Shown here: positions 83-21,067 of the stretch, piece by piece | Layout: each line of letters opens with the position of its first letter | Numbering within the stretch: position 1 is the stretch's first letter | Sequence record: DRR378314_471 | Length of the DNA: 61,345 nt | Strand: one strand, 5' to 3' | Translations under genes and position numbers: made by a program | The notes under the pieces: generated by a model | What the model saw: the letters and a program-made list of their open reading frames with translations, nothing else | Database searches by the model: none | What the model was told of the DNA's origin: nothing

Positions 83-1273
83 TCAAAGCTCGGTTTTTAC
101 AGCGGCGGCGGCCTGGGCTCCCTTCTTCCTTGCCTCGTCGATCGAGCTACCGGAAGCAAGCGCGACGCCCATTCTCCGCCGGCCCTTCAATTCAGGTTTC
201 CCGAAGAGCCTAAGAAAGATATCAGGTTGAGCCAACGCTTTTTCAAGCCCTGAATAAGCAACCGCATTCGATTCGCCTTCCGGCAAGATCACCGCGGAGG
301 CTGACGGGCCCTGTTGACGGATCGCCGGTATCGGCAATCCAAGGATGGCCCGGGCGTGCAAAGCGAACTCCGACAGGTCTTGGGAAACCAGGGTCACCAG
401 GCCGGTGTCGTGTGGTCGTGGCGAGACTTCTGAAAACCATACATCGTCGCCCTTCACGAACAGTTCAACACCATACACGCCATAGCCACCCAGATTACTG
501 GCAACGGCTTCGGCAATCTCCCTGGAACGGAACAGCGCCTTGTCGCTCATCGGTTGCGGCTGCCAGGATTCGCGGTAATCGCCGTCCTCCTGACGATGAC
601 CAATCGGATCGCAGAACGATATACCGTCACGGTGTTTCACCGTCAGCAAGGTAATTTCGTAATCAAAATCCACAAACCCTTCGACAATCACCCTGCCCTT
701 GCCGGCACGACCACCTGTCTGGGCATAGCTCCAGGCGGGCTCAATGTCATCGGGGGACTTAACCGTGCTCTGCCCTTTTCCAGAGGAGCTCATGACGGGC
801 TTCACCACCAGCGGCATTCCGATGGCTTCGACGGCTGCAAGATACTCGTCTTTCGACTCTGCGAATCGATACGGCGATGTTGCAAGCCCAAGCTCTTCGG
901 CTGCCAGGCGACGGATACCTTCCCGATTCATGGTGAGATGGACGGCTCTGGCAGTGGGAATCACCTGATAACCTTCCTGCTCAAGCTTTACCAGCTCCGG
1001 GGTGGCAATCGCCTCAATTTCGGGCACGATGAGGTTCGGCTTTTCCGCCTCAATAATCCGGCGTAAGGCTGCGCCATCCAGCATATCAACAACGTGACTG
1101 CGATGGGCAACCTGCATAGCCGGGGCATTGGCATAACGGTCGACTGCAATAACCTCCACGCCAAAGCGCTGCAACTCAATAACAACTTCCTTGCCCAGCT
1201 CTCCAGAGCCACAAAAAAGAACCCTGAAAGCGTTTTCTTTCAGCGGAGTACCAATGCGAACTGTGTCGGTCAT
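83..1273 (-). CDS. purT: Formate-dependent phosphoribosylglycinamide formyltransferase
   Basis: [26 protein letters not shown]-grasp [22 protein letters not shown] and RRMGVALA motifs; 396 aa. Confidence 0.97.
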
Positions 1274-1311
1274 GAACCTATCTACCCTGCTTGGTATCAG
1301 TGGTTAACGAT

Positions 1312-1494
1312 CTATACGAAAAACTTGCTTTCACGCTCGGCAACTTTACGCAACACGTCCCGGCGTTCTTCATTGCTCATCTGGGACCAGCGTGTGATCT
1401 CATCACCACTGCGATGGCAGCCAACACATATGTCGTTGTCATCAAGGGCGCAAATACTCACACAGGGCGAGCTCACCTTATCAGCCACTTTCAT
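1312..1494 (-). CDS. DUF1289 family small Cys-rich protein
   Basis: SPCVSICALD...CVGCHRSGDEITRW pattern; 60 aa. Confidence 0.85.
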   Translation of the reverse strand: MKVADKVSSPCVSICALDDNDICVGCHRSGDEITRWSQMSNEERRDVLRKVAERESKFFV

Positions 1495-1527
1495 CCTGCA
1501 ACCTCACCTAACCTATTGGCCACTACT

Positions 1528-2250
1528 TTAACCTTTCCTGATCTCCGCTTCTAACGCTCCTTCCTGCAGCGGCTCCCCCCAGGTGCTTCCATGCACAAGG
1601 TCAGCCAGCGGCAAGCGTGAGCGCCATCCCTTTTTTTCAAGCTCAGGCTGTTCAAGAAACTCGCTGACAAAGCCGAGGCACAGATAAGCCAACGGATAGA
1701 CATGCTCTGGGAGCTTCAGTGTCTTTGCCAGTTGTTCCTGATCCAGAATACTGACCCAGCCCACACCAATCCCCTCGGCCCTGGCCGCGAGCCAAAAGTT
1801 CTGTACTGCCAGGCAGGTACTGAACAGATCCGTTTCGACGATCGAGTTACGCCCCAGCACATGGGTACCACCGCGGCTGCGGTCGCAGGTGATGCATAGA
1901 TTTATCGGGCTCTCCAAAATGCCTTGTAGTTTGAGGCTTTTGTACTGCGCATTCCGATCGCCCTCATAGTTATCCGCCGCTTTACGGTTCTCTTCCTCGA
2001 AAATGGAAAGCACCTCGCGCCGCACGGTCTTGCTATCAATGACGAGAAAATCCCAGGGCTGCATAAAGCCGACGGAGGGAGCGTGATGGGCCGCCTCAAG
2101 CAGACGGGCAAGGACGTCCGGGGGGATCGGATCAGGAAGAAACTGTGAACGCACATCCCGACGTTCATGTATAGCACGATAAAGCCCCTTCATCTCTTCG
2201 TCACTAAAGGGGCGGTTATGATCTGATTGGTACGTTTTGTTATCCGTCAT
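1528..2250 (-). CDS. bluB: 5,6-dimethylbenzimidazole synthase
   Basis: Nitroreductase fold with RRDVR, AHHAPSVGFMQPW and QNFWLAARAEGIGVGWVS; lies within the cob operon. Confidence 0.93.
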   Translation of the reverse strand: MTDNKTYQSDHNRPFSDEEMKGLYRAIHERRDVRSQFLPDPIPPDVLARLLEAAHHAPSVGFMQPWDFLVIDSKTVRREVLSIFEEENRKAADNYEGDRNAQYKSLKLQGILESPINLCITCDRSRGGTHVLGRNSIVETDLFSTCLAVQNFWLAARAEGIGVGWVSILDQEQLAKTLKLPEHVYPLAYLCLGFVSEFLEQPELEKKGWRSRLPLADLVHGSTWGEPLQEGALEAEIRKG

Positions 2251-2259
2251 TCTTTGCCT

Positions 2260-3726
2260 CTAACGCCGTTCGCCCAGGCCCAGCAGATCCTTCAGAAACC
2301 CAGTGTCCAGGCACTCATCGACGAGATCCGCCAGGCGATCCAGCTGTTCCTGGCGGTGCGTTGTGTAGTCTACGGCCTGGTGTTGGGCTCCCAAGCCCGC
2401 CCATTCGAGTATCTCGCGGGTCGCTTCCGGCTGGTCGAAAATGCCATGGACATAAGTCCCCATCACCAGACCATCCGCACTCACCGCGCCTTCAGGCTTT
2501 TCATTCAACGTGGCCATTGGGCGCTCAAGCGCGGGGCCGCAGGAAACACCGTTGTGCATCTCATAACCTGTAAACCTCGCTCTTCCGCTGCCAATTCTTA
2601 ACTCCCCGGCAACGTCCTTCAGTGTCTTGCCGGCAACCATCCGTGTGGTCATGTTGAGCAACTCAAGGCCCGACGTGGTGCCGGCGCCCCCTTCCAGACC
2701 ATCCGGGTCAGAGACCTCCTGACCCATCATCTGGAAGCCGCCGCAAATGCCAAACACTTTGCCACCATAACGGAGGTGCTTCTGTATGGCCTCGGGCCAG
2801 CCATGGGTCCTCAGCCATTCCAGATCATGCCGGGTACTTTTGCTGCCCGGTAAGACGATCAGGTCCGCCGGAGGAATTCTCTGGCCCGGGCCAATAAACT
2901 GGAGGTTGACGCCGGGATGCAGACGCAGTGGATCAAAGTCGTTGTGATTGCTGATGCGGGGCAACACCGGCACGATCACGTTCAATGCACCTGGCTCGCT
3001 GGTGCCACTGGTGCCGACGCTGTCTTCGGCGTCAATCACCAGACCATGCAGATACGGCAATACGCCAGCTACGGTTTTAGCCGTGCGCTCGGTCAGCCAA
3101 TCCAGGCCTGGGTTCAGCAAGGCAATATCGCCCCGAAAACGATTGATTATAAAGCCTTTCGTACGCGCTCGTTCGTTCTCGGAAATGAGTTCAAGCGTGC
3201 CTACCAGTTGGGCAAATACACCCCCCTTGTCAATATCGCCGACAAGGAGCACCGGGCAATCGGCCGCTTCGGCAAAGCCCATGTTGGCGATATCGTTCGC
3301 ACGCAGGTTGATCTCAGCAGGGCTACCCGCACCTTCGGCGATGATCACGTCGTAGCGGGCGCTCAGGGCACGCCACGCCTCCACCACAGAGGCCATCGCC
3401 TCAGCCTTGTAGGCGTGGTAATCCAGAGCGTCCATATTGCCGTGAACCTTACCTCGCAGGATCACCTGGGCGCCGCAGTCACTCTGGGGCTTGAGCAGAA
3501 CCGGGTTCATGTCGCTATGAGGCTGGAGACCACAGGCCAGTGCCTGAAGTGCCGTGGAACGGCCTATTTCACCGCCGTCGACGGTGACTGCACTGTTCAG
3601 AGCCATGTTCTGGGGTTTGAAAGGCGCCACGGAGACACCCTGCCGCGCCAGCCACCGACACAGGGCGGCGACGACTGTGGTCTTGCCGGCATCGGAGGTC
3701 GTTCCCTGTATCATCAAGGTGGTCAT
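2260..3726 (-). CDS. cobQ: Cobyric acid synthase
   Basis: [35 protein letters not shown], GATase GICGGFQM and GTYVHGIFD. Confidence 0.97.
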
Positions 3727-3741
3727 GGATAGTGGCCTCGT

Positions 3742-4353
3742 CTACAGCTCGACGCCTTTCTGGGCTTTCACACCCAGGTCCTTGAACGCATGTTTCACAA
3801 TGCCCATCTCCGTAACAGTGTCCGCCAGGTCTACCAGCTCCTGCGGTGCCGATCGTCCGGTCACCACGACATGCTGCATCTCCGGGCGGCCCTGGAGGTC
3901 GTCCAGAACACGGTCAAGATCAATGTAATCGTACTTCAGGGCGATGTTGAGTTCGTCCAGCAGGACCAGATCGTAGCTGTCGTCTTTCAACATGTTGACG
4001 GCCACGTCCCAGGCCGCATTAGCGGCCTCAACGTCCTGCTCACGGTTCTTCGTTTCCCAGGTATAGCCCTGACCCATGACGTGGTAACTCACGTTAGGCA
4101 AGTCACGGAAGAACGCTTCTTCGCCGGTGCTGAATGCGCCCTTGATGAACTGGACTATGCCCACTTTCATGCCATGGCCAAGGGCCCGGGCCACCATGCC
4201 AAAACCTGAACTGCTCTTACCTTTGCCAGGGCCGGTGAGCACCAGCAACACACCCTGCTCCTTCTGGGCACGGGCAATGCGCTCCTGCATGATTTTCTGC
4301 TTGGCGTCCATGCGGCGGGCATGGCGTTCGGGGTCTTTGGCGCGTTCACGCAT
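3742..4353 (-). CDS. cobO: Cob(I)yrinic acid a,c-diamide adenosyltransferase (CobO/BtuR type)
   Basis: TGPGKGKSSSGFG, VQFIKG, LLDELNIAL, VVTGR and KHAF...AQKGVEL. Confidence 0.95.
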   Translation of the reverse strand: MRERAKDPERHARRMDAKQKIMQERIARAQKEQGVLLVLTGPGKGKSSSGFGMVARALGHGMKVGIVQFIKGAFSTGEEAFFRDLPNVSYHVMGQGYTWETKNREQDVEAANAAWDVAVNMLKDDSYDLVLLDELNIALKYDYIDLDRVLDDLQGRPEMQHVVVTGRSAPQELVDLADTVTEMGIVKHAFKDLGVKAQKGVEL

Positions 4354-5674
4354 GGTGGAGCTCCTTGTCAGTGAGCGGGAGAATGGCCTGCCCGCGAAAA
4401 ACTCTGGCTACCAACTCCGGGGCGGAGGGGAAATAGCCGTGGAAATAACTGGCGACCAGACCGCCCCGGGAGTACACCGGTTCGGCCTCGGTGCCCACAA
4501 CCTTGCGGGTTCGGGCCAGAGGTTGCCAGTCAGTCTCCAGTCGGGAGTGATGATAGGTATGGCCCCGCAGATGCCCGTGCTCGGTATTCAGGCCCTGCAG
4601 ACCCAGCGCTTGCAGGCGGTTAGCCATACTCGCCCTACCCGGCATCAGCCCTAGCAGGTCGTGGACCTGGCCGTCGTGATCCACTAACTGTTCGACACAC
4701 GCCATCAGGCCACCGCATTCCGCCAACATGGGTTTACCCGCCTTGTGGTGGCTGCGGATAGCCTCCAGCATTGCCAGGTTGCCAGCCAGGCGCCCACCAT
4801 GCAGTTCCGGGTAACCACCCGGAAGCCAGAGGGCATCGGCATCCGGTAACGTCGAATCCGCCAGGGGCGAGAAGAACACCAGCTCAGCGCCCATGGCTTG
4901 CAACAGGTCGAGGTTGGCGCGGTAGATAAAACTGAAAGCCGCATCCCGGGCAATGGCTATACGAGTACCTTCCAACAACCGGGGTGGCGGTTCCGGTTTT
5001 TCCGCAGACAGGTCAACCGGCTGCGGCAAGCCGTCCAGGCCGGCCTGGGCCAGCACGTCGGCAGCTGCATCCAGACGTTGATCCAGATCGCCCAATTCGC
5101 CGGCCTGAACCAGCCCAAGATGCCGATCCGGGATATCCATGGCCTCGTTTCGGGGAACGGCCCCCAGCAAACCGATGCCTTCAGGCAGGCTCTCCCGCAG
5201 CATAGCGCCATGGCGGGGGCTGCCGATGCGGTTGGCAATGACCTGATAAATTGGAAGCTCTGGGTCAAATGTCGCGAGACCCAGAGCCACCGCTCCAAAG
5301 GTCTGGGCCATGCCGCGGGCGTCAATGACCGGCAATGCCGGAATACCGATGAGTTTGGCAAGATCAGCACTTGAGGGGTCGCCGTCAAACAACCCCATGG
5401 AGCCCTCAACCAGAATCAGATCCGCCTCCTGGGCGGCTTCCGTGAGACGCCAGCGGCACTCGTCCTCGCCAGTCATCCACGGATGTAACTGGTACACCGG
5501 CTGCCCGGAAGCGAGCTCCAGAACCATGGGGTCGAGATAGTCCGGTCCATGCTTGAACACTCGAACGGTCTTCCCAGCGTTGCGGTGTAATCGTGCCAAG
5601 GCGGCCGTTACCATCGATTTTCCCTGACCAGAGCCAGGGGCGGTAATCATTGCGGCTGGTACGGTTGCTTTCAT
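4346..5674 (-). CDS. cobB: Cobyrinate/hydrogenobyrinate a,c-diamide synthase
   Basis: SGQGKS, FKHGPDYLDP, EGSMGLFDG, RHLGLV, GGYPELH and AECGGLM. ATG at 5674 chosen from the SD; ORF is open to 5683. Confidence 0.93.
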   Translation of the reverse strand: MKATVPAAMITAPGSGQGKSMVTAALARLHRNAGKTVRVFKHGPDYLDPMVLELASGQPVYQLHPWMTGEDECRWRLTEAAQEADLILVEGSMGLFDGDPSSADLAKLIGIPALPVIDARGMAQTFGAVALGLATFDPELPIYQVIANRIGSPRHGAMLRESLPEGIGLLGAVPRNEAMDIPDRHLGLVQAGELGDLDQRLDAAADVLAQAGLDGLPQPVDLSAEKPEPPPRLLEGTRIAIARDAAFSFIYRANLDLLQAMGAELVFFSPLADSTLPDADALWLPGGYPELHGGRLAGNLAMLEAIRSHHKAGKPMLAECGGLMACVEQLVDHDGQVHDLLGLMPGRASMANRLQALGLQGLNTEHGHLRGHTYHHSRLETDWQPLARTRKVVGTEAEPVYSRGGLVASYFHGYFPSAPELVARVFRGQAILPLTDKELHHA

Positions 5675-5728
5675 TAATGCCACCTTGTCTGGAAACTTAG
5701 AGAGCGCAATGGTGGTGCTCCGAGCCTT

Positions 5729-6502
5729 TTACATGGCCTTCTTGGGTACAAATAGTGGTGCACCATCGACCTCCACTGTCAGAAGCTCCTGATCATAGAG
5801 TCTTTCAAGCGCGGCCGGCACGAGCATGCGCTCTGCTGGCCCCCAGCACGCTTCGCCATTGGGGTACAGCAACAGCAGATGGTCACACCAACGTGCCGCA
5901 AGATTCAGGTCGTGCAGGCACATGAATACGGAACGCCCACTACGCGCCTGTTCGGTCAGCAACTGGAGCACCGATACCTGATGGTGCAGATCAAGGTGGT
6001 TAGTGGGCTCGTCCAGCAGCCAGGTGTCGGGCGCCTGGGTCAGCACTGTGGCAATGGCTACTCGCTGGCGTTCACCGCCGGAAAGTGTATTCACCAGTCG
6101 GTCACTGAGATGGCCCACGTCCAGTTGCTCCAGAGCTCGCCTCGCAAGACGTTCATCGGCTCCAGACTCCATCTGCCATGGCGACAACCACGGGTGACGG
6201 CCAATCAGCGCCGTTTCCAGCACTGTGGCGGGAAAGCCGTCCTGCCGCTCCTGGAACACAAGGCCCAGTTGTTGCGATATTGTTTTGCGCTTCAGGTCTG
6301 CCAAGGGATGCTCTCCCAGGCAAACCGAACCGCGACGCGGTGCTCGCAAACCTGCCAGTGTGTGCAAAAGCGTGGTCTTGCCAGCGCCATTCGGGCCCAA
6401 CACACCCCAGACCTGCCCGGTCTCCACGGCAAAGTTCAGCGCTTCCCCATCGCCGCGCCCTGGAATGTCGATGACCAACTGTCTTGCCTGCAACGGATTC
6501 AT
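5729..6502 (-). CDS. btuD: Cobalamin/Fe-siderophore ABC transporter ATP-binding subunit (BtuD-like)
   Basis: Walker A GPNGAGKTT, LSGGERQR, LLDEPTNHLD and HDLNLA. Start at 6502 overlaps the btuC stop; the ORF-track extension to 6946 is spurious. Confidence 0.88.
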   Translation of the reverse strand: MNPLQARQLVIDIPGRGDGEALNFAVETGQVWGVLGPNGAGKTTLLHTLAGLRAPRRGSVCLGEHPLADLKRKTISQQLGLVFQERQDGFPATVLETALIGRHPWLSPWQMESGADERLARRALEQLDVGHLSDRLVNTLSGGERQRVAIATVLTQAPDTWLLDEPTNHLDLHHQVSVLQLLTEQARSGRSVFMCLHDLNLAARWCDHLLLLYPNGEACWGPAERMLVPAALERLYDQELLTVEVDGAPLFVPKKAM

Positions 6503-7473
6503 CAGCGGCTCCGATACAGCAGGTAAAGGAACGTTGGCACCCCCAACAAGGCGGTGATCACGCCCACCGGCAACTGCTCTGGCGCAATCACTACCCGTGC
6601 CAGCGTATCCGCCAACACCAGAAGCGTACCGCCTGCCAGTGCGCAGGCGGGGAGAATCAGTCGCTGGTCGTTCCCAAGGACCAACCGGAGCATGTGGGGC
6701 ACCACCAAACCAACAAAACCAATACTGCCAGCCATGGTGACCGCGGTGGCAGTGAGCAGGCTGGCAAGGATATAGATCGTCCACTCCAGTGGGCGCACCG
6801 ACACCCCGAGGGCAGCCGCCTGCATCGGACCCCGTGCCAATACGTTGAGGCTGCGCCCCAGCGGCACGACCAAAAGGCACACCAGCCCCATCAAAACCAA
6901 TGCGGGCCAGGGAGATCTTGCGTAGGACACATCCCCCATCAACCAATACAGCATTCCCGGTAGACGCTGCGCCGGGCTGATCGCCAGCATCAATGTGATC
7001 ACGGCCCCCCAGCCGGCAGCGACCACCACACCGGTAAGCAACAAACGCGACGGTGTCCAGCTACCGGTGCCATGAGCCAGGCCAAACACCATTAGAGTGG
7101 CCAGCAGCGCACCGGCAAACGCCGACCCTGAAATAATCAGGCCGCCCAGGCCAGCCAGCATCGCCAACAAGGCACCAACGGCCGCACCGCCGGACAACCC
7201 CAGAACGTAGGGATCGGCCAATGGATTGCGTAAAAGCACCTGCATAAGGGCTCCGGCAACGGCGAGCAAACCGCCCGTTGCGAATGCAGACAGTGTCCGT
7301 GGCAGGCGCAATTCAAGCACCAGGGTTTGCTGCAGGTTGCTGCCCTTCCCCAGAATGACCGCGGCAACGTCTCCCGGTGCCACACTGACACTGCCAACAC
7401 CCACCGACACCATCATGGCGGCCAGGCTGGCCAGAGCCAGCAAAACAAGTGGCATGGTCAGGGGCCTGCTCAA
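6502..7473 (-). CDS. btuC: Cobalamin ABC transporter permease (FecCD/BtuC family)
   Basis: LRLPR, LLRNPLADPYVLGLSGGA, GSIGFVGLVVPH and ADTLAR...LPVGVITALLG; highly hydrophobic. Confidence 0.9.
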   Translation of the reverse strand: MSRPLTMPLVLLALASLAAMMVSVGVGSVSVAPGDVAAVILGKGSNLQQTLVLELRLPRTLSAFATGGLLAVAGALMQVLLRNPLADPYVLGLSGGAAVGALLAMLAGLGGLIISGSAFAGALLATLMVFGLAHGTGSWTPSRLLLTGVVVAAGWGAVITLMLAISPAQRLPGMLYWLMGDVSYARSPWPALVLMGLVCLLVVPLGRSLNVLARGPMQAAALGVSVRPLEWTIYILASLLTATAVTMAGSIGFVGLVVPHMLRLVLGNDQRLILPACALAGGTLLVLADTLARVVIAPEQLPVGVITALLGVPTFLYLLYRSR

Positions 7474-7488
7474 AGGATCCGTCTCCCA

Positions 7489-8385
7489 TTAACGTTTGGC
7501 ACGGGCATCATCCAGCTTCTCGCAAAACAGTTGTGAACCGTCCAGCATACGCGGGGTCGGGCGCTGGATCAGGGAAGGTGGAACGAAGTACAGGTTATCG
7601 TTCGCGGACGCATCGATACTCGGGAAAGCCTCCCAGCGGGTAAGCCAGTGCCGGTTTTCTTCGCCCATCCCCCCCGCCAGGATGGCCTCCGGGTTAGCGC
7701 CGATAACCGCCTCATCGCTGATCCTCGGCACCAAACGATCGAGATCACCAAACACATTCACACCGCCACACAGCGTTATCACTTTACCGATCAGGTGTTC
7801 ATCATTCACCGTCATCAGAGGCTCATCCCACACCTGATAGAAAACCGATACCGGTTCCGCACCCTGATACCGTTTTTCCAGTGCAGCCATTCCCTTGCGA
7901 AACCGATCGGCTTCGGCAAAGCCCTCTGTTTCGGTACCCGCCAGAATCGCCAGCCGTTCAATGGTGCTCGAGACGCCCTCAAAACTTCGGGGTTCAATAG
8001 AGAACACGGGCAAGCCCAGGTCTTTCAGAGCCGCAATCTGTTCCGGCGGATTGCCCGTCACCCAACCAATGACCAGGTCCGGTTTCAGTGCCATCAACCG
8101 CTCAAGGTCCATTCGAGTGTGGCTGCCCACGGAGGTGACTTGTTTCGCCTGCTCAGGGTAGTCGCTGTATGAGACCACCGCGATAACCTGGTCACCGGCA
8201 CCTGCGGCCCAGACAAGTTCGGTCGCTCCGGGAGATAAGGCTGCTATCCGGCTGGCCGGTTTTTCCAGGCAGACCTCCTGGCCGGTATCGTCTGTTGCGC
8301 AGCGCTCAGTTCCCGCCACAACCCAAGGTGACATGGCAAGTGCCAGGGACATCAGCGCAGCGGTATGCCGGAACGATTTCAACAT
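7489..8385 (-). CDS. btuF: Periplasmic cobalamin-binding protein
   Basis: Signal peptide; RIAALSPGATELVWAAGAG, VSYSDYPE, LKPDLV and RPTPRML. Probable start 8385 (ORF open to 8415). Confidence 0.88.
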   Translation of the reverse strand: MLKSFRHTAALMSLALAMSPWVVAGTERCATDDTGQEVCLEKPASRIAALSPGATELVWAAGAGDQVIAVVSYSDYPEQAKQVTSVGSHTRMDLERLMALKPDLVIGWVTGNPPEQIAALKDLGLPVFSIEPRSFEGVSSTIERLAILAGTETEGFAEADRFRKGMAALEKRYQGAEPVSVFYQVWDEPLMTVNDEHLIGKVITLCGGVNVFGDLDRLVPRISDEAVIGANPEAILAGGMGEENRHWLTRWEAFPSIDASANDNLYFVPPSLIQRPTPRMLDGSQLFCEKLDDARAKR

Positions 8386-11300
8386 GAGACCCTCTGGTTT
8401 CCGGGATTCTGACAATCATCGTTGGCAGCGCGTATCGCAGGGTAGTCGGCCGACCCACCTTTTCGAGCGGATTCGAAGGCTTCCCGCTGTTTGGGTTCCA
8501 ACTGATCCGCGACCCAATCCATCAGGGGGTGATCCGGGCGGGTGTGGCCACTGCCGGGCAAGCCATGGTCGATGATATTTCCTGCGAAGTCACGTGCCAG
8601 GGCCTGGCGGGTAAAGACATCCGCCTCCCAGAATCCACGCTTAGCAGCCAGAAGCGCAATCGCCTGCATGTGCGTTTTGACATGCACATTGTGGCCCTCC
8701 GCCAGGAAGTCATCCAGACCAAGGCCGTGGCGATCCTGAAAGTACACTTCATTGACCTCGTCCCAAACGCTGGAACGAAGCACCTGGGGACTTGTGATTT
8801 GCCAGCCCCACAGGTTGTCCAGAAAATCGCTACCCATGGTGCGAGCCCCCGCGTAGCCGTGCTCCATCAGCGGTGCCAACCACTGCGGGTTCAAATTGCG
8901 GGCTCTCAGCTCCACCTGCAAGGCTCGCTGGAGCGAGTCCACCCGGGGGTTGCGCGGGTCAGCGTACTGGAGCACCCGGTTTTGCGGTGGCTCGCCACGC
9001 AAGTGTTCCACAGCATTGGAAAGGCCGCCCTGAAAGTCAAAACCGTCATCGTTGTCCAGCAGACCGTAGAGGTGGCTGGCCCTGCCGAGGTAGGTATGGT
9101 TCACCGTCTGCAATTGGCGATCGAACGCGTCATGAGCCGGCTCACCCTGGCTGCCTTTGCCATAGACGTGCCCCATGCGCCGGCGGTAGGCGTCACCCAG
9201 TTGCTCCCGGTCCTGCCAGGCGCCCGTCCGGGTGGCGAGACGATTAACCCCGGCCCCGTATGCGCCCGGAGCCGTACCAAAGACCCGGAAAGCGGCCTGT
9301 GCACCCGCATCTCGCGCCGAAGCACCCGCTGCCAACAATACCCGGGCATCGTCGACCCAGCGTGCCGCGACAACGTTGGTGGACAGAGACTCGTCACCGG
9401 GCTCACGCATGTCTGATGGCAGAACCGACAACGCCTGAGCCAGGGCTTCGCGCAGCTCAGGGTACTCCGCCTCAATGGTTTCCGCCGCACCCGCCAGGGC
9501 GTAACGCGACGCCATATCCAGCCATTCCAGTTGGCTTTCGTATAGATCCCGGAACAGGCCGGATGTGGTGAATACCACGTTACGCCGAATGGGCGTATCG
9601 GTTCCCGCACCCGCAGGAAGACGCTCCAACCCCTTCACAATACCCCGACTGTTCCACACCGGGCGTATGCCCAACAACTTCATGCCAAACGCAATCATGA
9701 CCCCTTCGTCCCGCACCGTATCGGATGCCCAGAGCACCAGCGCATCGCTTTGCTCCGAAGCGCTGTCTTTAGTGGCCCTGGCTTGCTCAACCAATTCTTC
9801 CGCCAGGGACCAGGCCACGCGGGTTGGAATCAGGTCATCGGACAGCGCATGGAAATTGCGCCCCGTTGGCAAGACCGCCGGCGTTCGCAACGGGTCGTTG
9901 CCCTGCCCCGGAGCAACAAACCGACCATTCAGCGCGTTGAGAAAGCTGGTACGCTCAGCAGCAGGGGAGGCCTCAAGATGGGTGCGCCAGCCCGGCTCTG
10001 GCGTGCCGGCCTTACCAGCCATGGAATCCAGCATGGTGTCCACCATGTCGGCACTCCAGTCCCGGCCGAACACGTGTAGCCCCAAGGGCATGAAGTGTTC
10101 CTGCATGTCGGTGACGTAATGGCCGGCTTCGTGGACCAGGAGGTCGGGTGAAAGCTCATCGAGGGACACTTCTTCCACCGACAACCCCATCTCTCCAGCG
10201 ATTTCCTGTTCGAGATCATCGGAGATATCCAACACCTGGATTTTCTCCCGCAGCATCTTCAGCGCCCGCTCTCTCGTTGGGCTGCCGGGCTCGTTGGCAG
10301 ACTCCCAGGTTTCCACCAACTGCCGCAGTTCGAGCAATTCATCGTACAGCTCGGTAGCAGCCAGTGGCGGGGTAAGATGACTGATCATGACGCCCAGCGC
10401 CCGGCGCTTCGCCTGAATCCCCTCTCCCACACCGTCAACAATGTAGGGGTAGATTAATGGGAGGTCACCCCCCAGAAGGTCCGGGTAGTCATCCCCCGTC
10501 AAACCCGCCCGTCGGCGCGGCAGAAACTCTCGGGTGGAGTGGCGCCCAACATAAACCAGCGCATCAGCCTGATAGTGATCTCGTAACCAGTAGTAGAATC
10601 CCACGTATTGATGGGTCGGGGGGAACGTGGTGTTGGCGTGCAACAACTCCTCATCCACTTCCCAGCCTCGTGGCGGTTGCGGGCCAATGTAGATATTACC
10701 GAAGCGAAGCCCCGGAAAAATCAGCCTGTCATCCACCACCATCGAATCGCCTGGGGCTGTACCCCAACCCTTGAGGCCGGGAATACCGGCATTTGCAAGC
10801 GACCGGCGACTGGTTTCCAGCGCTTCCGTCTGTCCACCCTTGTTCAATCGCGTTTGCCAGAGCAATTCGTATTGGTCCAGCCGGCTCAAGGCAGCCTTCC
10901 GGTTTGGGTGCTGGATGTGTTCGATCAGATGCCGAAGATCCTGAACGCCTCGGTTCAAAAGATCCGTGGCCAGTTCTTTCTCCCCCATCCCATGTGCCTG
11001 TTCAAGCCGCTCATGCAAATAACCCAGAGGTCCGTGGACGATCTCCTGCTGCACAACCTGGGGCAAGGTTTCGAGATACTGGCGGTAGGTGCTGCCGGCC
11101 ATTGAGGCGACATCGCCGGCCATTTCCCTTAACGCACGAGGGTCATCAGGGAGGCTTACACCTCGCTGTTGAAGCAGATCCGTGAGCGCCTCCGGGCTTT
11201 CCGGCAATGGCCCGGTCTCATAGCCTTCCGCCTTGAGCCAGGTCAGCATTTCGTAGAGGGACGCTGGCACATCCAGGTTGTCCGCTCCGATGTTCTGCCT

Positions 11301-12593
11301 CCCAGGAGGGTGATTGTAATAAATGATGGCAACGCGCTTGTCGGCATTCGTCTTCGCTTGCAGCGCCTGCCAGCGGGTCAGGCGATCTGCCAACGCGTTC
11401 ACCCGCTCCTTGACCGGCTGAGTCAGAGTCAGGGCCACACCAGTGTTTTCGTCAATCACTTCCGGCTCCGCAGTCGCCAGCACCATGGGCTGACTGACAC
11501 CCTGGAGTTCGGGCATCGCCAGTTTGTAGTGTACTTTGTCGGACGGAATGCCATCGATCGACAACTGCCACTGATTGGCGGTGCGAGAGGCCAGACGCAA
11601 GCCCTTGACCACCGGGACATTTAGCTGGATCAACGCTTCCGTAACCTGACGCCGCCCTTCACCGCCGCCGATGATGAAGTCCTGCAGGCTGACGATACCG
11701 GACAAAGTCGCAGGGCCTACCGTCTCATCGAGGGCACGAACAGCCTCAAGACTGGCACCGCCCCATCGCGAGAGGATTGCGAAACACTGCATGCCCCTGG
11801 ACTCCAGGGCCGCACAGGTTTCGTCCAGCAGCGCCTGATCGCCGGGGCGATCACCGCTGTCCAGGTCCAGAAGGGCGACCACGGGGCCGGCTCTCAGGTT
11901 AAGATTCGCAGCGCTATCCGTCGCTTCGCCATTGCGGTAATAGCGGATCAGCGCCCGGGGCGGCAGATCCGGCACCTCCAGCGCCTCGCCCGCGTGAACA
12001 AGCAACCAACGCAATAACGCGTCCAGATGCTGCGGGGTGCGCCCCTGGTATAGGGCCCGACCTGCAAGCCAGGACGCCTGATCAGGAAAGCGCGCCTTAA
12101 GCTCCGCCCGATGGGCCTTCAAGTCCGTGCCGGGGTCCGGCGCTTTCATCAGGTTATTCAGTGTGGTGGCATCCAGCCCTTCCAGGGCCCTGCGCCCCTG
12201 CAACCGCGACAATACGGTCAGCGCCCTATCGCCATTCACCGCCAGCACAGGAAAATCGCGAACGGTCTCCTGTTCGCGCACCGCGCGCTCGATCCGCCCC
12301 ACCTGCTCGCCAAAAACCGCGGCCATCAACAAGGCATCGGCTTGGCCCACCAGATCGTCAAGGGCCGTGTTGTCCAGGTTTGCCAACTGCTCTGGTGTTC
12401 TCAGAATGATGCGGTGATCCGGATAAGCGTCCAGGAAGCGCTCCGCACCTGCGGCCATCTCGGCAGCGGAGCGTTCAGACACCACGCCAAATACCGTGGC
12501 ACCGAACACCGGGGCCGAAAACAGCATTACCAACCCCAGAACGAAAGCCAATACCGGGCGGTTCCTATTCCAATCCGGACCTGTGCGGTTCAT
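8379..12593 (-). CDS. CobN/ChlH-family chelatase-like protein with predicted signal peptide (BtuS/HmuS-like)
   Basis: YYNHPPG...GADNLDVPASL, GPQPPRG, PPTHQY, IYPYIVDGVGEGIQAKRR, SHLTPP, LPTGRNF, TSGLFRD, GAYGAG and LNPQW...HGYAGA. N-terminus has a basic + hydrophobic signal-like segment; 1404 aa. Confidence 0.9.
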   Translation of the reverse strand: MNRTGPDWNRNRPVLAFVLGLVMLFSAPVFGATVFGVVSERSAAEMAAGAERFLDAYPDHRIILRTPEQLANLDNTALDDLVGQADALLMAAVFGEQVGRIERAVREQETVRDFPVLAVNGDRALTVLSRLQGRRALEGLDATTLNNLMKAPDPGTDLKAHRAELKARFPDQASWLAGRALYQGRTPQHLDALLRWLLVHAGEALEVPDLPPRALIRYYRNGEATDSAANLNLRAGPVVALLDLDSGDRPGDQALLDETCAALESRGMQCFAILSRWGGASLEAVRALDETVGPATLSGIVSLQDFIIGGGEGRRQVTEALIQLNVPVVKGLRLASRTANQWQLSIDGIPSDKVHYKLAMPELQGVSQPMVLATAEPEVIDENTGVALTLTQPVKERVNALADRLTRWQALQAKTNADKRVAIIYYNHPPGRQNIGADNLDVPASLYEMLTWLKAEGYETGPLPESPEALTDLLQQRGVSLPDDPRALREMAGDVASMAGSTYRQYLETLPQVVQQEIVHGPLGYLHERLEQAHGMGEKELATDLLNRGVQDLRHLIEHIQHPNRKAALSRLDQYELLWQTRLNKGGQTEALETSRRSLANAGIPGLKGWGTAPGDSMVVDDRLIFPGLRFGNIYIGPQPPRGWEVDEELLHANTTFPPTHQYVGFYYWLRDHYQADALVYVGRHSTREFLPRRRAGLTGDDYPDLLGGDLPLIYPYIVDGVGEGIQAKRRALGVMISHLTPPLAATELYDELLELRQLVETWESANEPGSPTRERALKMLREKIQVLDISDDLEQEIAGEMGLSVEEVSLDELSPDLLVHEAGHYVTDMQEHFMPLGLHVFGRDWSADMVDTMLDSMAGKAGTPEPGWRTHLEASPAAERTSFLNALNGRFVAPGQGNDPLRTPAVLPTGRNFHALSDDLIPTRVAWSLAEELVEQARATKDSASEQSDALVLWASDTVRDEGVMIAFGMKLLGIRPVWNSRGIVKGLERLPAGAGTDTPIRRNVVFTTSGLFRDLYESQLEWLDMASRYALAGAAETIEAEYPELREALAQALSVLPSDMREPGDESLSTNVVAARWVDDARVLLAAGASARDAGAQAAFRVFGTAPGAYGAGVNRLATRTGAWQDREQLGDAYRRRMGHVYGKGSQGEPAHDAFDRQLQTVNHTYLGRASHLYGLLDNDDGFDFQGGLSNAVEHLRGEPPQNRVLQYADPRNPRVDSLQRALQVELRARNLNPQWLAPLMEHGYAGARTMGSDFLDNLWGWQITSPQVLRSSVWDEVNEVYFQDRHGLGLDDFLAEGHNVHVKTHMQAIALLAAKRGFWEADVFTRQALARDFAGNIIDHGLPGSGHTRPDHPLMDWVADQLEPKQREAFESARKGGSADYPAIRAANDDCQNPGNQRVSC

Positions 12594-12615
12594 GTGTTTG
12601 CCTCTCCGTGGCCGA

Positions 12616-14427
12616 TCAGATGTCGTAACGTATCGTCAGCATTGCAGTGCGGCCTGCGGCTATGTAGGCATCGCCACCTGAGCGCAATGCCGTGGCGTAT
12701 TCCTTGTCTAACACATTGTCCAACGTCACGTTGGTGGTCCAATGATGGTCGATTCGCCATTTTGCCCGCAGATCCCAAGTGGTAAAGCCAGCGATACGCT
12801 GTTCGTTCTCGGCGTCGTTATAGCGATATCCCTGCCCTTTAACCGTTGTACCCACGGATACCTGACCAAAAGACCGGTCCACGTCCACCCGGAACTGTTT
12901 GCCACTGCGACGGCGAATGCGGTTGTCGGTCTCACGGTCACGGGGGTCCGTTACTGACGCGGCCGCCTGCAGAGTCCATTCATCAAGTTCCAGACCGGCA
13001 CTTAGCTCCGCCCCCCGGATGCGTGCCTCGTTGACATTGAACGGTGCTGACCGCCCGTTTATTGTCGTGAACACGATCAGATCATCTGCGTCAGTCTGGT
13101 AAATAGCGGCGTCCCAAAACCAATAGGTGTACCGCCCGCCAATACCAAGCTCAACACTGCCTGCGGTTTCCGGTTTCAGGTCGGCGTTCCCAAAGTTGGG
13201 AAAATAAAGGTCATTGAACGTGGGGGCGCGGAAAGACGTGCTGTAGCTCACCCGGGCGCGATGGTTACGGTCCAGATCAACGCCCATGGCCACCGCGCCG
13301 GTCTCCTCACGCCCAAACGCCTCGTTGTCATCCGCACGCAAACTCAGCTGAAAGTCTGTCGGACCGAAATTCAACAGGGCCTGGCCAAAAACGGCGGCAT
13401 TGGTGCGACTGGTTTCGTCAAAGTCGGTGGTGCTATCCACTTCGTCCACCAACAGCTCACCGCCAACGATGTATTCGTGACGGCCAGCGCTGATCTGGTT
13501 CTCCCAGCGGGCACTGCGAGTCTTGGTATCAAAGGTGCTGAAACCAAAGTTGTCGCGTGTGTCCTGCTCATCAATGGATTCCGCGAGCAGGATGCGGCTG
13601 CGCCAATAGTTGCTGATGGGGGTGTCGAGTTTGAAGCCGAGGGTCTGAATGGCGAAATCGGTATCACCGTCCTCAAATTCGGTATTCCCCTGCGCCCGCA
13701 TCAGGACGAGGCCGGCTTCGCCACCGGAGTCAAACTGATGGGCTACGGACGCCAGGGCGGAGGTGTTTCGAAAACCCTTATCGTCGCCGTCTTCCACGAT
13801 GGCGGTGCCGTCGGTCTCCAGGTGGCTCGCGCTCACGCTGTATTTCATCCTGCCTTCGGTACCGGCGGCTCCAGCCACATATTCCTGAGTATTGAAGTTG
13901 CCGCCTCCCGCCTGGACCCAGCCTTCGTGACCGGTCTCAGCACTGTGGGTGAAAGCCTGGATGACACCCCCCACGGCATCGGCACCATAAAGGTTACTGC
14001 GTGAGCCACGGACAATTTCGACCCTCTCCACCATTTGCGGCGGGAAGTACTGCCAGGCTGCACTGCCGCTGGTGGCCGAGCGCAGGCGAATACCGTCCAC
14101 CAGGAACACCGTGGATTCGCTTCCGGTACCCCGTGTATAGACACTGGTATTCTTGCCGAAAGAGCCATTGCTCGTGATATCGAGACCGGGCTGGCCCATC
14201 AGCAGCTCCTCGAATGTCTGTGGCTGAAGACGCTCGATAGCCTCCTCGTCAATGACCGTGACGGAAGAGTCGCTTTCGCCCCGGGTCTTCGGGCCAAGCG
14301 TTGCCGTAACAACAATGGGGTCAAGCGCCGAAACAGTCGCTTCTTCGTCGGCCGACGCATTGGAAAGCGGCAGAAACACAAGGGGGAGACCGGACAACAG
14401 AACCGGCATGGACTTCACGTAACCCAT
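12616..14427 (-). CDS. btuB: TonB-dependent vitamin B12 outer-membrane receptor
   Basis: TonB box DPIVVTAT, plug RGTGSESTVFLVDG and ERVEIVRG...LYGADAVGGVI, FRAPTFNDLY; lies directly below a cobalamin riboswitch. Start uncertain (14409-14445). Confidence 0.92.
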   Translation of the reverse strand: MGYVKSMPVLLSGLPLVFLPLSNASADEEATVSALDPIVVTATLGPKTRGESDSSVTVIDEEAIERLQPQTFEELLMGQPGLDITSNGSFGKNTSVYTRGTGSESTVFLVDGIRLRSATSGSAAWQYFPPQMVERVEIVRGSRSNLYGADAVGGVIQAFTHSAETGHEGWVQAGGGNFNTQEYVAGAAGTEGRMKYSVSASHLETDGTAIVEDGDDKGFRNTSALASVAHQFDSGGEAGLVLMRAQGNTEFEDGDTDFAIQTLGFKLDTPISNYWRSRILLAESIDEQDTRDNFGFSTFDTKTRSARWENQISAGRHEYIVGGELLVDEVDSTTDFDETSRTNAAVFGQALLNFGPTDFQLSLRADDNEAFGREETGAVAMGVDLDRNHRARVSYSTSFRAPTFNDLYFPNFGNADLKPETAGSVELGIGGRYTYWFWDAAIYQTDADDLIVFTTINGRSAPFNVNEARIRGAELSAGLELDEWTLQAAASVTDPRDRETDNRIRRRSGKQFRVDVDRSFGQVSVGTTVKGQGYRYNDAENEQRIAGFTTWDLRAKWRIDHHWTTNVTLDNVLDKEYATALRSGGDAYIAAGRTAMLTIRYDI

Positions 14428-14585
14428 ATCAACACTCGCTGGCAAACCACGCGCACCCGCATGGTGATGGTTATGTCGCGGAGCTTGAGAGTGAGACTGG
14501 GGGAGGCAGGATACGAGTCAGGGTACGGGTGTGAAACCGGCACAACTCACCCACCGCCGTCGCCCTCCGCAACGCTTGGTGTGTA

Positions 14586-14782
14586 ATCAGGCCGGTCTCC
14601 GGGCTTACGAGTGAAACAGCGTGTTGGGCCGATTCGGGGCAATCACCTTCCCATGCAAGACGCACAGTGGTTGATACGATTGCCTTTGACTCGCTTACCG
14701 TTGCGGGGGCAGCGTCGGACTTTAACCGACTTCCCGTTTTAAGCTTTCCGGCGGGCGTACCGCGAGAAAGCGTTACCTGAAT
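14586..14782 (-). ncRNA. Cobalamin (AdoCbl) riboswitch
   Basis: Minus strand: TCAGGT...AAAACGGGAAGTCGGTTAAAGTCCGACGCTGCCCCCGCAACGGTAA...CCACTG...TGGGAAGG...AGCCCGGAGACCGGCCTGA (B12 box); upstream of btuB. Confidence 0.95.
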
Positions 14783-14831
14783 ACGGTGTTCATTTAATCG
14801 GGGGCCAAACTAGCAGCCCTTATGTGCTAAA

Positions 14832-15848
14832 TCAATACAGACCCATGAAAAGCAGCGCCTGCTCTAGCCGTGCCCAGTCCTGCTCGGAACCAGGCAATCC
14901 AAATCTCAGTGCCGCGGGGCTATCAAACTCTCGAACCAGGATTCCCTGCTTTGCGAGGTCCGCGGCAATGTCTGCGGCGCGTTGATGCCGAACGTATCGG
15001 AAAAAGGCCGTACCCGTGCTCTCTTCAAGGCCATGGCGCGACAGGCAGTCCGACAGGCGCAGGCTTTCACTGTGAAGCCTTTCGGTGGTCGCGACCTGCC
15101 ACTGGATATCCGCCAACGCCCGGTCCATCACGAATCTCGCTGGGCCGCTGACAGTCCAGGGCCCCATCAGGGCACCGAGCGGCTCTACGATTCCTGCATC
15201 TCCCATCACGGCACCGGCCCGCAGGCCCGCCAGGCCGAAAAACTTACCCAGGGACCTCATGACAACAAGACCGGGCCTGTCAGTCGCGAATCCGACACTC
15301 AACTCCGGGGTGGCATCCACAAACGCTTCATCCACAATGAGCCAACCGCCGTGTTGCTGCAATCGATCATGCCAACTCAACAGCCGATTCGGATCAATGG
15401 CCTGGCCACTCGGGTTGTTCGGATTGATCCAGACCACCACATCCAGATCATCCAGCCAGCGTTCGTCATCGCCATCCAACTGCCCAGAGCGAATCTCGGT
15501 AACCCTATGGCCCGCAGCAGCCCAATGGTGTCGATGTTCCTGGTAGCCTGGCGCCGGCACACCCACTCGACACGCCGATCGTAGCCGCGGCAGATGCATA
15601 ATCGCCGCCTGGCTCCCCGCGATCGGTAAACACGCCGCAGAAGCCGGGGCGCCTACCCATCGCCGGACACGTTGCTCCAGGCCATCGTCAGGCTCGGGTA
15701 GGCGACGCCAAACCTCCTCAGGTATTGACGGCACGGGCCATCCCTGGGGGTTAATTCCGGTCGAGAGATCCAGCCATTGATCCAGCGGAATCCCCCACGT
15801 CTTCGCGGCGGCGCGCAATCGCCCACCATGCTCGGGAAGCGACACCAT
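14832..15848 (-). CDS. cobD: L-threonine-O-3-phosphate decarboxylase (PLP; CobD, called CobC in aerobic-pathway nomenclature)
   Basis: EHGG, WLDLSTGINP, GSQAAI, NPNNPSG, VDEAFVD and RSLGKFFGLAGLRAG. Confidence 0.92.
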   Translation of the reverse strand: MVSLPEHGGRLRAAAKTWGIPLDQWLDLSTGINPQGWPVPSIPEEVWRRLPEPDDGLEQRVRRWVGAPASAACLPIAGSQAAIMHLPRLRSACRVGVPAPGYQEHRHHWAAAGHRVTEIRSGQLDGDDERWLDDLDVVVWINPNNPSGQAIDPNRLLSWHDRLQQHGGWLIVDEAFVDATPELSVGFATDRPGLVVMRSLGKFFGLAGLRAGAVMGDAGIVEPLGALMGPWTVSGPARFVMDRALADIQWQVATTERLHSESLRLSDCLSRHGLEESTGTAFFRYVRHQRAADIAADLAKQGILVREFDSPAALRFGLPGSEQDWARLEQALLFMGLY

Positions 15849-15876
15849 CACGCCTCAGTTCCAGGCCTGATCGTGA

Positions 15877-16437
15877 TCATTGTTCACCCGGCACCCACAG
15901 CACATCGTCTTTTCCCTTGTTGTTCGCGTGTCTGGCCAGGACGAACAGCAAATCCGACAGGCGATTCATATAAGCCAACACAGGCTGGCTGATGTCCTGT
16001 TCTTCCTGCAACTGAGCAATGATTCGCTCAGCCCTTCGCGTGACGGTGCGGGCATGGTGCAAGTGCGTTGCGGCCGGGTTACCCGCAGGCAGGATAAAGG
16101 AACGCAGCGACGGTATATTCGCGTTGAAACGGTCAATTTCCTGTTCAAGCTCAACGGTCTTGCCTTCAGCCAGCCTCAATGGCGGGTATTTCGGGTTCTC
16201 CTCGAACGGGGTACACAGATCCGCACCCACGTCGAAAAGATCGTTCTGGATGCGCGCCAGCATGCCATCCAGCTCCTGGTCCACGTGAAGCCGCGCCAGC
16301 CCGATCACGGCATTGGCTTCATCCACCGTGCCATAAGCCTCCACGCGCAGGTCGTGCTTGGCAACCCGGCTGCCATCGCCTAGGCCGGTGTCGCCTTTGT
16401 CGCCGGTCTTGGTGTATATCTTGGTAAGCCTGACCAT
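15877..16437 (-). CDS. PduO/MMAB-type ATP:cob(I)alamin adenosyltransferase
   Basis: KIYTKTGDKGDT, RVEAYGTVDEAN, QNDLFDVGADL, FILPAG, RTVTRRAER and NRLSDLLFVLAR. Confidence 0.94.
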   Translation of the reverse strand: MVRLTKIYTKTGDKGDTGLGDGSRVAKHDLRVEAYGTVDEANAVIGLARLHVDQELDGMLARIQNDLFDVGADLCTPFEENPKYPPLRLAEGKTVELEQEIDRFNANIPSLRSFILPAGNPAATHLHHARTVTRRAERIIAQLQEEQDISQPVLAYMNRLSDLLFVLARHANNKGKDDVLWVPGEQ

Positions 16438-16479
16438 TTATTTCTCCCGGAATCCGGTTCATTACATTATCGAAGCCGG

Positions 16480-20566: not shown

Positions 20567-20581
20567 CGGACACTCCTGATA

Positions 20582-20589
20582 TTGTTATT
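20582..20589 (-). promoter_or_regulatory. A-rich AANAANAA (Hfq/Crc-type) motif next to the RBS of the CoA ligase
   Basis: Minus strand ACAACC-AATAACAA-TATCAGGAGTGTCCG-ATG. Confidence 0.4.
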
Positions 20590-20626
20590 GGTTGTCGTCT
20601 GAGGAAATCTGCGGCCACGTCTCTGG

Positions 20627-21052: not shown

Positions 21053-21067
21053 CGCACTCTCCTTGGA

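Follow-up and report, generated by a model that had tools for sequence, protein, structure and literature searches.

An operon of corrinoid uptake and late B12 synthesis genes in Marinobacter that may salvage corrinoids from cobyrinate onwards

Why would a bacterium keep the enzymes that amidate the corrin ring of vitamin B12 under the control of a cobalamin riboswitch, when its nearest relatives have no genes for making that ring? The question is raised by a stretch of DNA of 61,345 nucleotides from sequence record DRR378314_471 (the whole stretch is called the window below), in which the minus strand between positions 1528 and 15851 carries genes for corrinoid uptake (btuB, btuFCD), for late steps of B12 synthesis (cobB, cobO, cobQ, cobD and bluB) and for a homologue of the cobalt chelatase subunit CobN that is predicted to be exported. 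A sequence-only reading of the locus had proposed that it scavenges unamidated and/or metal-free corrins released by other microbes. We put a probability of roughly 55% on a closely related reading, that this is a B12-repressed operon for the salvage of incomplete corrinoids from cobyrinate onwards in a Marinobacter that is unable to make the ring, and the salvage would probably include metal-free hydrogenobyrinate, after cobalt insertion in the periplasm.

In what follows the curated cut-offs are the NCBIfam equivalog hidden Markov model cut-offs for gene families and the Rfam gathering score for the riboswitch; gene calls in GC-rich loci were made from homology together with the listed open reading frames (ORFs), greedy longest-ORF calling having given antisense ORFs there. 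The run of genes, all of it on the minus strand, is headed by a cobalamin (adenosylcobalamin) riboswitch aptamer at 14573-14795, which covers the full RF00174 model (1-189) with 100.5 bits against a gathering score of 31.5 and is the sole riboswitch in the 61 kb. The riboswitch lies upstream of btuB (12616-14445), with 128 nt between its 3′ end and the btuB start. The btuB-like gene would encode a TonB-dependent outer-membrane corrinoid receptor with Plug and barrel domains (Pfam); TIGR01779 is its best-matching family, though at 441 bits it stays below the cut-off of 600, and NF007926 gives 249 bits (cut-off 836). It is followed by the gene for the putatively exported CobN/ChlH-family protein (8379-12593; 1404 residues), which is BtuS-like and a candidate periplasmic cobalt chelatase, and by a btuF-like gene for a periplasmic corrinoid-binding protein (7489-8415; NF002894 164 bits, cut-off 234; PF01497 86 bits), the listed ORF of which overlaps the CobN-homologue gene and may truly start downstream of the overlap. 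Then come a btuC-like ATP-binding cassette (ABC) importer permease (6502-7473; PF01032 FecCD 280 bits; NF003001 BtuC 236 bits, cut-off 334) and a btuD-like ABC ATPase, listed at 5729-6946, with PF00005 at residues 170-316 and a BtuD score of 117 bits (cut-off 281). The best NCBIfam matches of the latter are ATPases of haem, corrinoid and siderophore importers, and its homology begins at about residue 150 of the listed ORF, the true start probably being at about 6500.

The biosynthetic genes that complete the run all score over their cut-offs. They are cobB, for cobyrinic/hydrogenobyrinic acid a,c-diamide synthase (4346-5683; NF002204 423 bits, cut-off 254), with CbiA (PF01656) and GATase_3 (PF07685) domains; cobO, for ATP:corrinoid adenosyltransferase (3742-4353; NF004637 273 bits, cut-off 185; PF02572 match); cobQ, for adenosylcobyric acid synthase, which amidates positions b, d, e and g (2260-3726; NF001989 654 bits, cut-off 273; TIGR00313 466 bits, cut-off 310); and bluB, for 5,6-dimethylbenzimidazole synthase, the source of the lower ligand (1528-2250; TIGR02476 276 bits, cut-off 150). 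Because no gap or overlap from btuB to bluB exceeds 45 nt (btuC and btuD being about 20 nt apart if btuD starts at about 6500), the layout fits a single nine-gene operon behind the riboswitch. A promoter and terminator scan of 1000-16600 was uninformative, with 7 sites resembling promoters where 4.8 would be expected and without a clear terminator downstream of bluB. The gene for L-threonine-O-3-phosphate decarboxylase, cobD, which provides the aminopropanol-phosphate linker (14832-15851; TIGR01140 340 bits, cut-off 290.6), lies immediately upstream of the riboswitch and thus outside the run that it heads. The genes named by the sequence-only reading are therefore in place; the btu genes stay below their equivalog cut-offs, but B12 or related importer families rank first or close to first among the matches of all four. 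An RF00174 element also stands ahead of btuB in five loci of relatives (L031, L038, L060, L087 and L089), and cobD lies beside btuB in most Marinobacter loci.

No ring or nucleotide-loop genes were found in the window, as had been claimed. The ring proteins cobA, cbiD, cobG, H, I, J, K, L, M and a CbiG-like protein, taken from a Thioalkalivibrio cluster, gave no tblastn match in the window at E <= 1e-12, and the loop genes cobU, cobC, cobT, cbiB and cobS gave none at E <= 1e-3 with the proteins of a close relative as queries. The same holds for the 28 window ORFs scanned against NCBIfam, among which there was neither a ring nor a loop gene.

Whether the ring could be made elsewhere in the genome, and whether a salvage route could be completed there, was addressed in relatives. 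A scan of species-representative genomes for the CobN homologue confirmed 83 of 114 candidate stretches, which represent 79 distinct loci. The best matches come from M. algicola DG893 (92% amino acid identity) and from M. salarius R9SW1 and a complete Marinobacter metagenome-assembled genome (91% each); the window DNA is 85.5-86.4% identical to these three and shares their gene order over about 22 kb. By these matches the window is from a Marinobacter of a species outside the genome set compared. The three nearest relatives have no ring genes. Each of five relatives (G001-G005) has just two or three matches to the methylase family PF00590, about six fewer than a ring pathway requires, and all five have CbiB and a cobalamin synthase. 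In G002 the genes cobU, cobC, cobT, cbiB and cobS form one cluster, distant from the uptake operon. Both questions that the sequence-only reading had left to a genome-wide inventory are thus answered in its favour by the relatives: the ring pathway is not there, and the route from an imported precursor to cobalamin can be completed. We also considered whether the uptake system is a specialised extra beside a normal BtuB and rejected this, the btuB of the operon being the only B12-type receptor in G001, G002 and G004. In published work M. algicola OT failed to supply B12 to a B12-requiring alga (PMC8399681), and a Marinobacter strain is classed with the non-producers that induce B12 transporters under B12 limitation (PMC13431280).

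One of these genomes, G001 (the genome of locus L034), has frame breaks in the CobN homologue (978 + 442 residues, separated by one TGA), cbiB, cobQ and a PF00590 methylase. Because they hit so many unrelated genes, these look more like assembly errors than decay.

The distribution of the genes over 191 species of the genus, with CbiC/CobH taken as the marker of a ring pathway, is nested: 96 species have CobQ above its cut-off, 75 have CobB, 49 have the exported CobN homologue and 2 have CbiC. CobB passes the cut-off in 44 of those 49 genomes, is present as fragments on split contigs in four and is missing from one. About 73 species have CobB without CbiC, and 30 have CobB and no CobN-family gene at all. 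In three species of the latter kind a single cluster runs cobU-cobC-cobT-cbiB-cobD-btuB-btuFCD-cobB-cobO-cobQ-bluB, with a riboswitch ahead of btuB in the one that was scanned (L089); with no chelatase in these species, the substrate of their CobB must already hold cobalt. A further 21 of the 191 species have CobQ and no CobB, and their entry point would be the a,c-diamide.

The amidases do not look like remnants. Against four relatives the ratio of nonsynonymous to synonymous substitution rates (dN/dS) is 0.06-0.10 for cobB, 0.07-0.13 for cobQ and 0.06-0.07 for the CobN homologue, at synonymous distances (dS) of 0.5-3; this is the same range as for the transporter genes, btuC for example giving 0.02-0.06. 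All three genes are under strong purifying selection, and values of 0.06-0.13 indicate that the genes of the operon are no decaying remnant. What the sequence-only reading said of scavenging is thus borne out as far as the lack of ring genes, the completable route and the maintained amidases are concerned; the substrates themselves are reached by inference.

Two other genes of the locus differ in their conservation. cobD is 74-75% identical to its counterparts in the nearest relatives, compared with 86-97% for its neighbours, and has a dN/dS of 0.12-0.18. btuB occurs in two forms among close relatives (loci L003, L006, L008, L024 and L042 were compared), with identities of about 90-94% or 55-61%, while the neighbouring CobN homologue and btuC remain 82-97% identical, which suggests that btuB has been replaced or is under strong diversifying pressure.

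The two species with CbiC, G159 and G015, both have canonical CobN and CobW, together with CobG matches just below the cut-off. In G015 a stretch of about 14 kb on a single contig holds the genes for CbiC, canonical CobN, CobB, CobW and CobQ. In G159 (L086 and L087, contig C11) a complete ring cassette sits between btuD and cobO, in the place of the native cobB, and contains cobM, L, K, J, I, H and G, canonical cobN, cobW, a cobB of its own and a riboswitch of its own. The cassette CobB is only 49% identical to that of the window, and the exported CobN homologue is retained as well. It has the look of a later addition to a salvage operon that was already there.

The 1404-residue protein encoded between btuB and btuF is what could take the entry point of the pathway back beyond cobyrinate. 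It falls below every CobN and BchH equivalog cut-off: TIGR02257 gives 494 bits (cut-off 822) and NF004644 551 bits (cut-off 1248), with the match split into three or four stretches, and identity to the canonical CobN of G159 is about 30-34%. Compared with solved structures it is nearly equidistant from CobN (337 bits), ChlH (332 bits) and HmuS (331 bits). By sequence it is a member of the class I chelatase large-subunit superfamily (PF02514) that lies outside all characterised families.

The claim that this protein is exported was examined at both of its ends. N-termini from 21 of the 79 loci, 44-92% identical to the window protein, all show a Sec-type signal peptide, in which basic residues and then a hydrophobic core lead up to an Ala-x-Ala-like site and, directly after it, a conserved mature start; the signal sequences themselves vary. 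A wrongly assigned start could imitate a signal peptide and was considered, and we rejected it on the same pattern in 21 of 21 homologues and the lack of a conserved internal methionine. The C-termini, compared in 14 loci and the window, are of two kinds: a short tail with two conserved cysteines in the five Marinobacter sequences (the window included), and, in the ten homologues from outside Marinobacter, a transmembrane helix between an acidic linker and a basic tail. Both endings would fit a periplasmic location. Judged by its sequence, then, the protein is exported, and the sequence-only reading was right on this point.

Alignments to solved CobN and ChlH show that the histidine of the G-x-H-G loop is kept, as is the glutamate that aligns with the one changed in the ChlH variant of entry 6yt0. 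HmuS has a family motif, LSLDHxxEFMGG, which bears a second active-site histidine (PMC12583661); in the window protein an acidic CobN-type motif stands in its place, with no histidine in that column. As for the head/neck region of HmuS, no alignment was obtained over roughly the first 290 residues; it covers positions 294-429 of the N-terminal 430-residue piece used as query. The kept residues and the acidic motif suggest a chelatase-type active site in an exported protein.

The company kept by the homologue in the 79 loci ties it to corrinoid genes. cobB lies within the fetched flanks of 61, most of the others being short contigs, and btuB, btuFCD, cobO and cobQ are usually near. Seven Marinobacter loci have the order cobB, CobN homologue, cobO (with cobQ next where the contig reaches that far), which is the order of the pathway. 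In 38 loci, all of them outside Marinobacter, the CobN homologue is followed by a MotA/ExbB-family gene of 150 codons, and in L031 and L038, the two loci in which this was checked, the gene after that encodes a DUF2149 protein. No orthologue of this ExbB-like gene was found in the Marinobacter genomes, where the loci leave no room for an extra gene between the CobN homologue and btuF, and the window gave no tblastn match (E <= 1e-12) to the ExbB-like protein of the Thioalkalivibrio cluster or to two ABC-2 exporter proteins encoded there.

Two genomes from outside the genus show the homologue in ring producers. Thioalkalivibrio (G192) and Halospina (G194) have CbiC, and CobG over its cut-off, and thus carry an aerobic, late-cobalt ring pathway, and in both the exported homologue is the only CobN-family gene. 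Over the genus of G192 as a whole, CbiC occurs in 11 of 35 species, the exported homologue is found in all 11, with no CbiC species lacking it, and ten of the 11 have no other CobN-family gene; the genes for CbiC and the homologue lie within about 10 kb on the same contig, except in G197, where they are on different contigs. The usual partners and substitutes are absent where they were sought. CobS is over its cut-off in none of ten genomes tested, CbiK was found in none of five searched (G192 and G194 among them), and CbiX was not found in G192. CobW is over its cut-off in two of ten genomes tested, exactly those with canonical CobN, in none of six producers of this kind and in neither of two relatives tested; in G003 the only strong PF01078 match is a ComM/YifB-like gene. 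The most economical interpretation makes the exported homologue the cobalt chelatase of these producers, which would meet the metal-free corrin in the periplasm. On that reading Marinobacter keeps exactly the steps that would follow periplasmic metalation.

The ring operons of these producers also include an ABC-2-type exporter pair, consisting of an ATPase and a permease, at 19258-20984 in L038 (Thioalkalivibrio) and at 12032-13485 in L092 (Halospina). The pair has cbiD on one side and cobG or cobH on the other. NF011648 gives 308 bits for the permease (cut-off 225), and the proteins are 56-64% identical between the two genera; no such pair was found in the G159 cassette, which has canonical CobN. 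A riboswitch heads the Halospina ring operon (L092), and another stands ahead of a btuB-like gene in the Thioalkalivibrio cluster (L038). Separately, loci L093 (G211) and L094 (G113) hold a paralogous module in which a CobN-family protein about 28-31% identical to that of the window is followed by an ExbB-like gene; in L093 the module is preceded by a TonB-type receptor.

Taken as a salvage system, the operon could work as follows, although the compounds it acts on and the direction and periplasmic site of the metal reaction are our inference. When adenosylcobalamin is scarce, the riboswitch would permit expression and BtuB would carry complete or incomplete corrinoids over the outer membrane. 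In the periplasm the CobN homologue would insert cobalt into metal-free corrinoids of the hydrogenobyrinate type before import, and BtuF with BtuCD would then move the corrinoids into the cytoplasm. There CobB, CobO and CobQ would turn imported cobyrinate into adenosylcobyric acid, CobD would provide aminopropanol phosphate, and CbiB, CobU, CobT, CobC and CobS, which are encoded elsewhere in the genomes of the relatives, would complete cobalamin with the dimethylbenzimidazole lower ligand provided by BluB. Uptake together with CobB, CobO and CobQ would let cobyrinic acid serve as an entry point, well ahead of cobinamide, the usual one, and cobalt insertion by the CobN homologue would take the entry point one further step back. 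That CobB amidates cobyrinate as well as hydrogenobyrinate is stated in a review (PMC8123684).

The salvage of cobinamide and cobalamin in E. coli and Salmonella (BtuB, BtuFCD, BtuR/CobA, CobU, CobT, CobS and CobC), with which the "Cbi salvager" class of Shelton et al. (PMC6461909) can be grouped, is among the closest known systems, and the window operon resembles it with an extension back through the late aerobic pathway. It shares with the window riboswitch-controlled BtuB, BtuFCD-type import and adenosylation, and with the genomes of the relatives the assembly of the nucleotide loop. The window operon differs in adding CobB, CobQ, the exported CobN homologue, CobD and BluB, to which the relatives add CbiB. 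The use of cobinamide needs none of these six proteins, so the additions put the entry point at least four amidations and one linker step before cobinamide; the remark in the sequence-only reading that ordinary cobinamide salvage needs neither CobB nor CobQ agrees with established knowledge of the pathway. The late half of the aerobic pathway of Pseudomonas denitrificans (CobB, CobNST with CobW, CobO and CobQ; PMC7689651, PMC8123684) uses the same families in the same pathway order, and the active-site histidine and glutamate and the acidic motif of canonical CobN are kept in the window homologue. The homologue differs from canonical CobN in having a signal peptide and in its scores below the cut-offs and identity of about 30-34%, and the system differs from CobNST and CobW in having no CobS, no CobW over the cut-off and no ring enzymes alongside.

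The other resemblance is to haem uptake by the Hmu system of Bacteroidota (HmuR, HmuS, HmuT, HmuU, HmuV), with which BtuS1/BtuS2 of Bacteroides fragilis may be grouped (PMC6460266). In both systems a TonB-dependent receptor is followed by an exported CobN-family protein, and in the relatives outside Marinobacter by ExbB-like and DUF2149 proteins; both lack an AAA+ partner and have an N-terminal signal, and a C-terminal anchor is found in the non-Marinobacter homologues. The differences are the control by a cobalamin riboswitch, the surrounding cob and btu genes and the acidic motif in place of the HmuS histidine motif, and the Marinobacter copy has neither the ExbB-like partner nor the anchor. 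By its description the PA1922-PA1925 operon of Pseudomonas aeruginosa (TonB receptor, CobN-like protein, ExbB/D-like protein and a hypothetical protein; PMC4542158, PMC8531726) is a similar module, which differs in being regulated by zinc (Zur), where the window operon is under B12 control, and in having no linkage to cob genes.

These resemblances bring us to the points that weigh against salvage from cobyrinate onwards. The genome-wide statements concern relatives at about 86% DNA identity to the window. BtuB, BtuF and BtuC are below their equivalog cut-offs, and family scores do not fix their ligand range. Because the ExbB-like gene and the membrane anchor are absent, the Marinobacter CobN homologue may work differently from the others or only bind its ligand. 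The substrate of canonical CobN is the a,c-diamide, which is formed in the cytoplasm; a periplasmic enzyme would need another order of substrates. Finally HmuS, the nearest characterised exported relative, removes metal: it faces the periplasm and takes iron out of haem independently of ATP (PMC12583661).

Another explanation, in our view a rather unlikely one, is that the operon serves ordinary B12 or cobinamide salvage, that the CobN homologue belongs to a TonB-dependent module for acquiring metal or metallo-tetrapyrroles, in the manner of Hmu or PA1922-PA1925, as a dechelatase, a metal-transfer protein or a periplasmic binder, and that CobB and CobQ are there for the occasional repair or re-amidation of corrinoids that have lost some of their amides. 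The layout of TonB receptor, CobN-family, MotA/ExbB-like and DUF2149 genes in Halomonas and Thioalkalivibrio matches hmuR, hmuS, hmuU and hmuV (PMC11681262), the module also resembles the Zur-regulated PA1922-PA1925 operon (PMC4542158), and there is the second, paralogous module in G211 and G113, with its CobN-family protein about 28-31% identical to that of the window. The operon must in any case also serve plain B12 uptake, given that its BtuB is the only receptor of that type in three relatives. Against this, the homologue has the acidic CobN-type motif in place of the HmuS motif with its second active-site histidine, and a dechelatase would render imported corrinoids useless, because these genomes have no cytoplasmic chelatase; cobalt harvested in this way would be of no use to a cell without ring synthesis. 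A dechelatase or binder also leaves unexplained the aerobic-pathway producers in which the exported homologue is the only class I chelatase, and the purifying selection on cobB and cobQ and their nested distribution argue for regular use rather than occasional re-amidation.

It is improbable that the amidase and chelatase genes are simply an unneeded leftover of an ancestral complete aerobic pathway, with only the uptake of B12 and cobinamide of importance. Stepwise loss would be one way to read the staircase from CobQ only, through CobB with CobQ, to both with the CobN homologue, and the ExbB-like gene and the membrane anchor are gone from Marinobacter (where DUF2149 was not searched for). 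Against this stand the dN/dS values of 0.06-0.13 at dS of 0.5-3, like those of the transporter genes, intact full-length ORFs in dozens of species and a position in the riboswitch operon that is conserved across several genera, and the G159 cassette, with its own riboswitch and its 49%-identical CobB, looks like gain. That the genome of the window has a complete ring pathway elsewhere, which would make the operon the late half of a de novo producer, is more improbable still. Two of the 191 species do have CbiC, together with canonical CobN and CobW, but the three nearest relatives, with which gene order is shared over 22 kb, have no ring genes. The G159 cassette, moreover, lies inside this very operon and the CbiC gene of G015 within about 14 kb of those for CobB and CobQ, whereas the window has between btuD and cobO the native cobB and nothing else.

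Salvage of incomplete corrinoids by Marinobacter might also be one side of a larger arrangement, which we put forward tentatively as a possible extension: a periplasmic cobalt chelatase without an AAA+ motor would represent a second form of the aerobic B12 pathway, and Marinobacter and several Halomonadaceae would live on what leaks from it. In the producers the ABC-2 exporter of the ring operon would push hydrogenobyrinate out of the cytoplasm, the membrane-anchored CobN homologue would metalate it in the periplasm, with the MotA/ExbB-like and DUF2149 partners giving energy from the proton gradient, and a BtuFCD-type importer would bring it back for amidation, as cobyrinate, by CobB. Some of the metal-free corrin would leak from such cells, and Marinobacter and several Halomonadaceae would have kept only the steps after export.

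Directly upstream of cobD the window holds an operon that consumes B12, also on the minus strand (15877-21760). It encodes a PduO-type adenosyltransferase (15877-16437), the large subunit of an acyl-CoA mutase (16480-18177), a MeaB GTPase (18164-19144), a PaaK-like CoA ligase (19145-20566), a separate B12-binding small subunit (20627-21052) and a GntR regulator (21068-21760). Because the split mutase is accompanied by a CoA ligase, the operon suggests a mutase other than plain methylmalonyl-CoA mutase. The remainder of the window (83-1273 and 22000-61345) consists of housekeeping genes without further B12 genes, among them purT, purL, mltF and genes for a thiolase, a FadJ-like protein, a tail-specific protease, an acyl-CoA ligase, a short-chain dehydrogenase/reductase (SDR) fusion protein and a pitrilysin-like protease.

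Parts of this picture have been anticipated. In 2003 CobN-like proteins were already suggested to form a "BtuS" class that salvages metalloporphyrins (as cited in PMC6460266), and Shelton et al. found cbiA/cobB in 46% of their predicted precursor salvagers, which in the account given there are filed as cobinamide salvagers or decaying pathways and have no class of their own (PMC6461909). According to the HmuS paper most other clusters of the superfamily still cannot be annotated (PMC12583661). A literature search, from which supplementary tables were excluded, found no description of a riboswitch-linked exported CobN homologue in Proteobacteria and no defined class of cobyrinate or hydrogenobyrinate salvagers. 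To call the niche under-described, as the sequence-only reading did, is thus fair; "unknown" would be too strong in view of the BtuS proposal and the 46% of Shelton et al.

Genome surveys often take cobB, cobN, cobO and cobQ as markers of B12 production, whereas here these genes mark a consumer. This fits the observation that M. algicola did not feed an alga despite the "B12 biosynthetic genes" noted in the genus (PMC8399681). If cobyrinate or hydrogenobyrinate is indeed traded, B12 cross-feeding in marine and saline communities would have currencies beyond cobalamin, cobinamide and lower ligands. If the exported homologue is a chelatase, cobalt insertion would take place outside the cytoplasm and need neither ATP nor a CobW chaperone. 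That would be a new solution to the problem of metal selectivity that comes with late cobalt insertion, and the reverse of what the haem dechelatase HmuS does.

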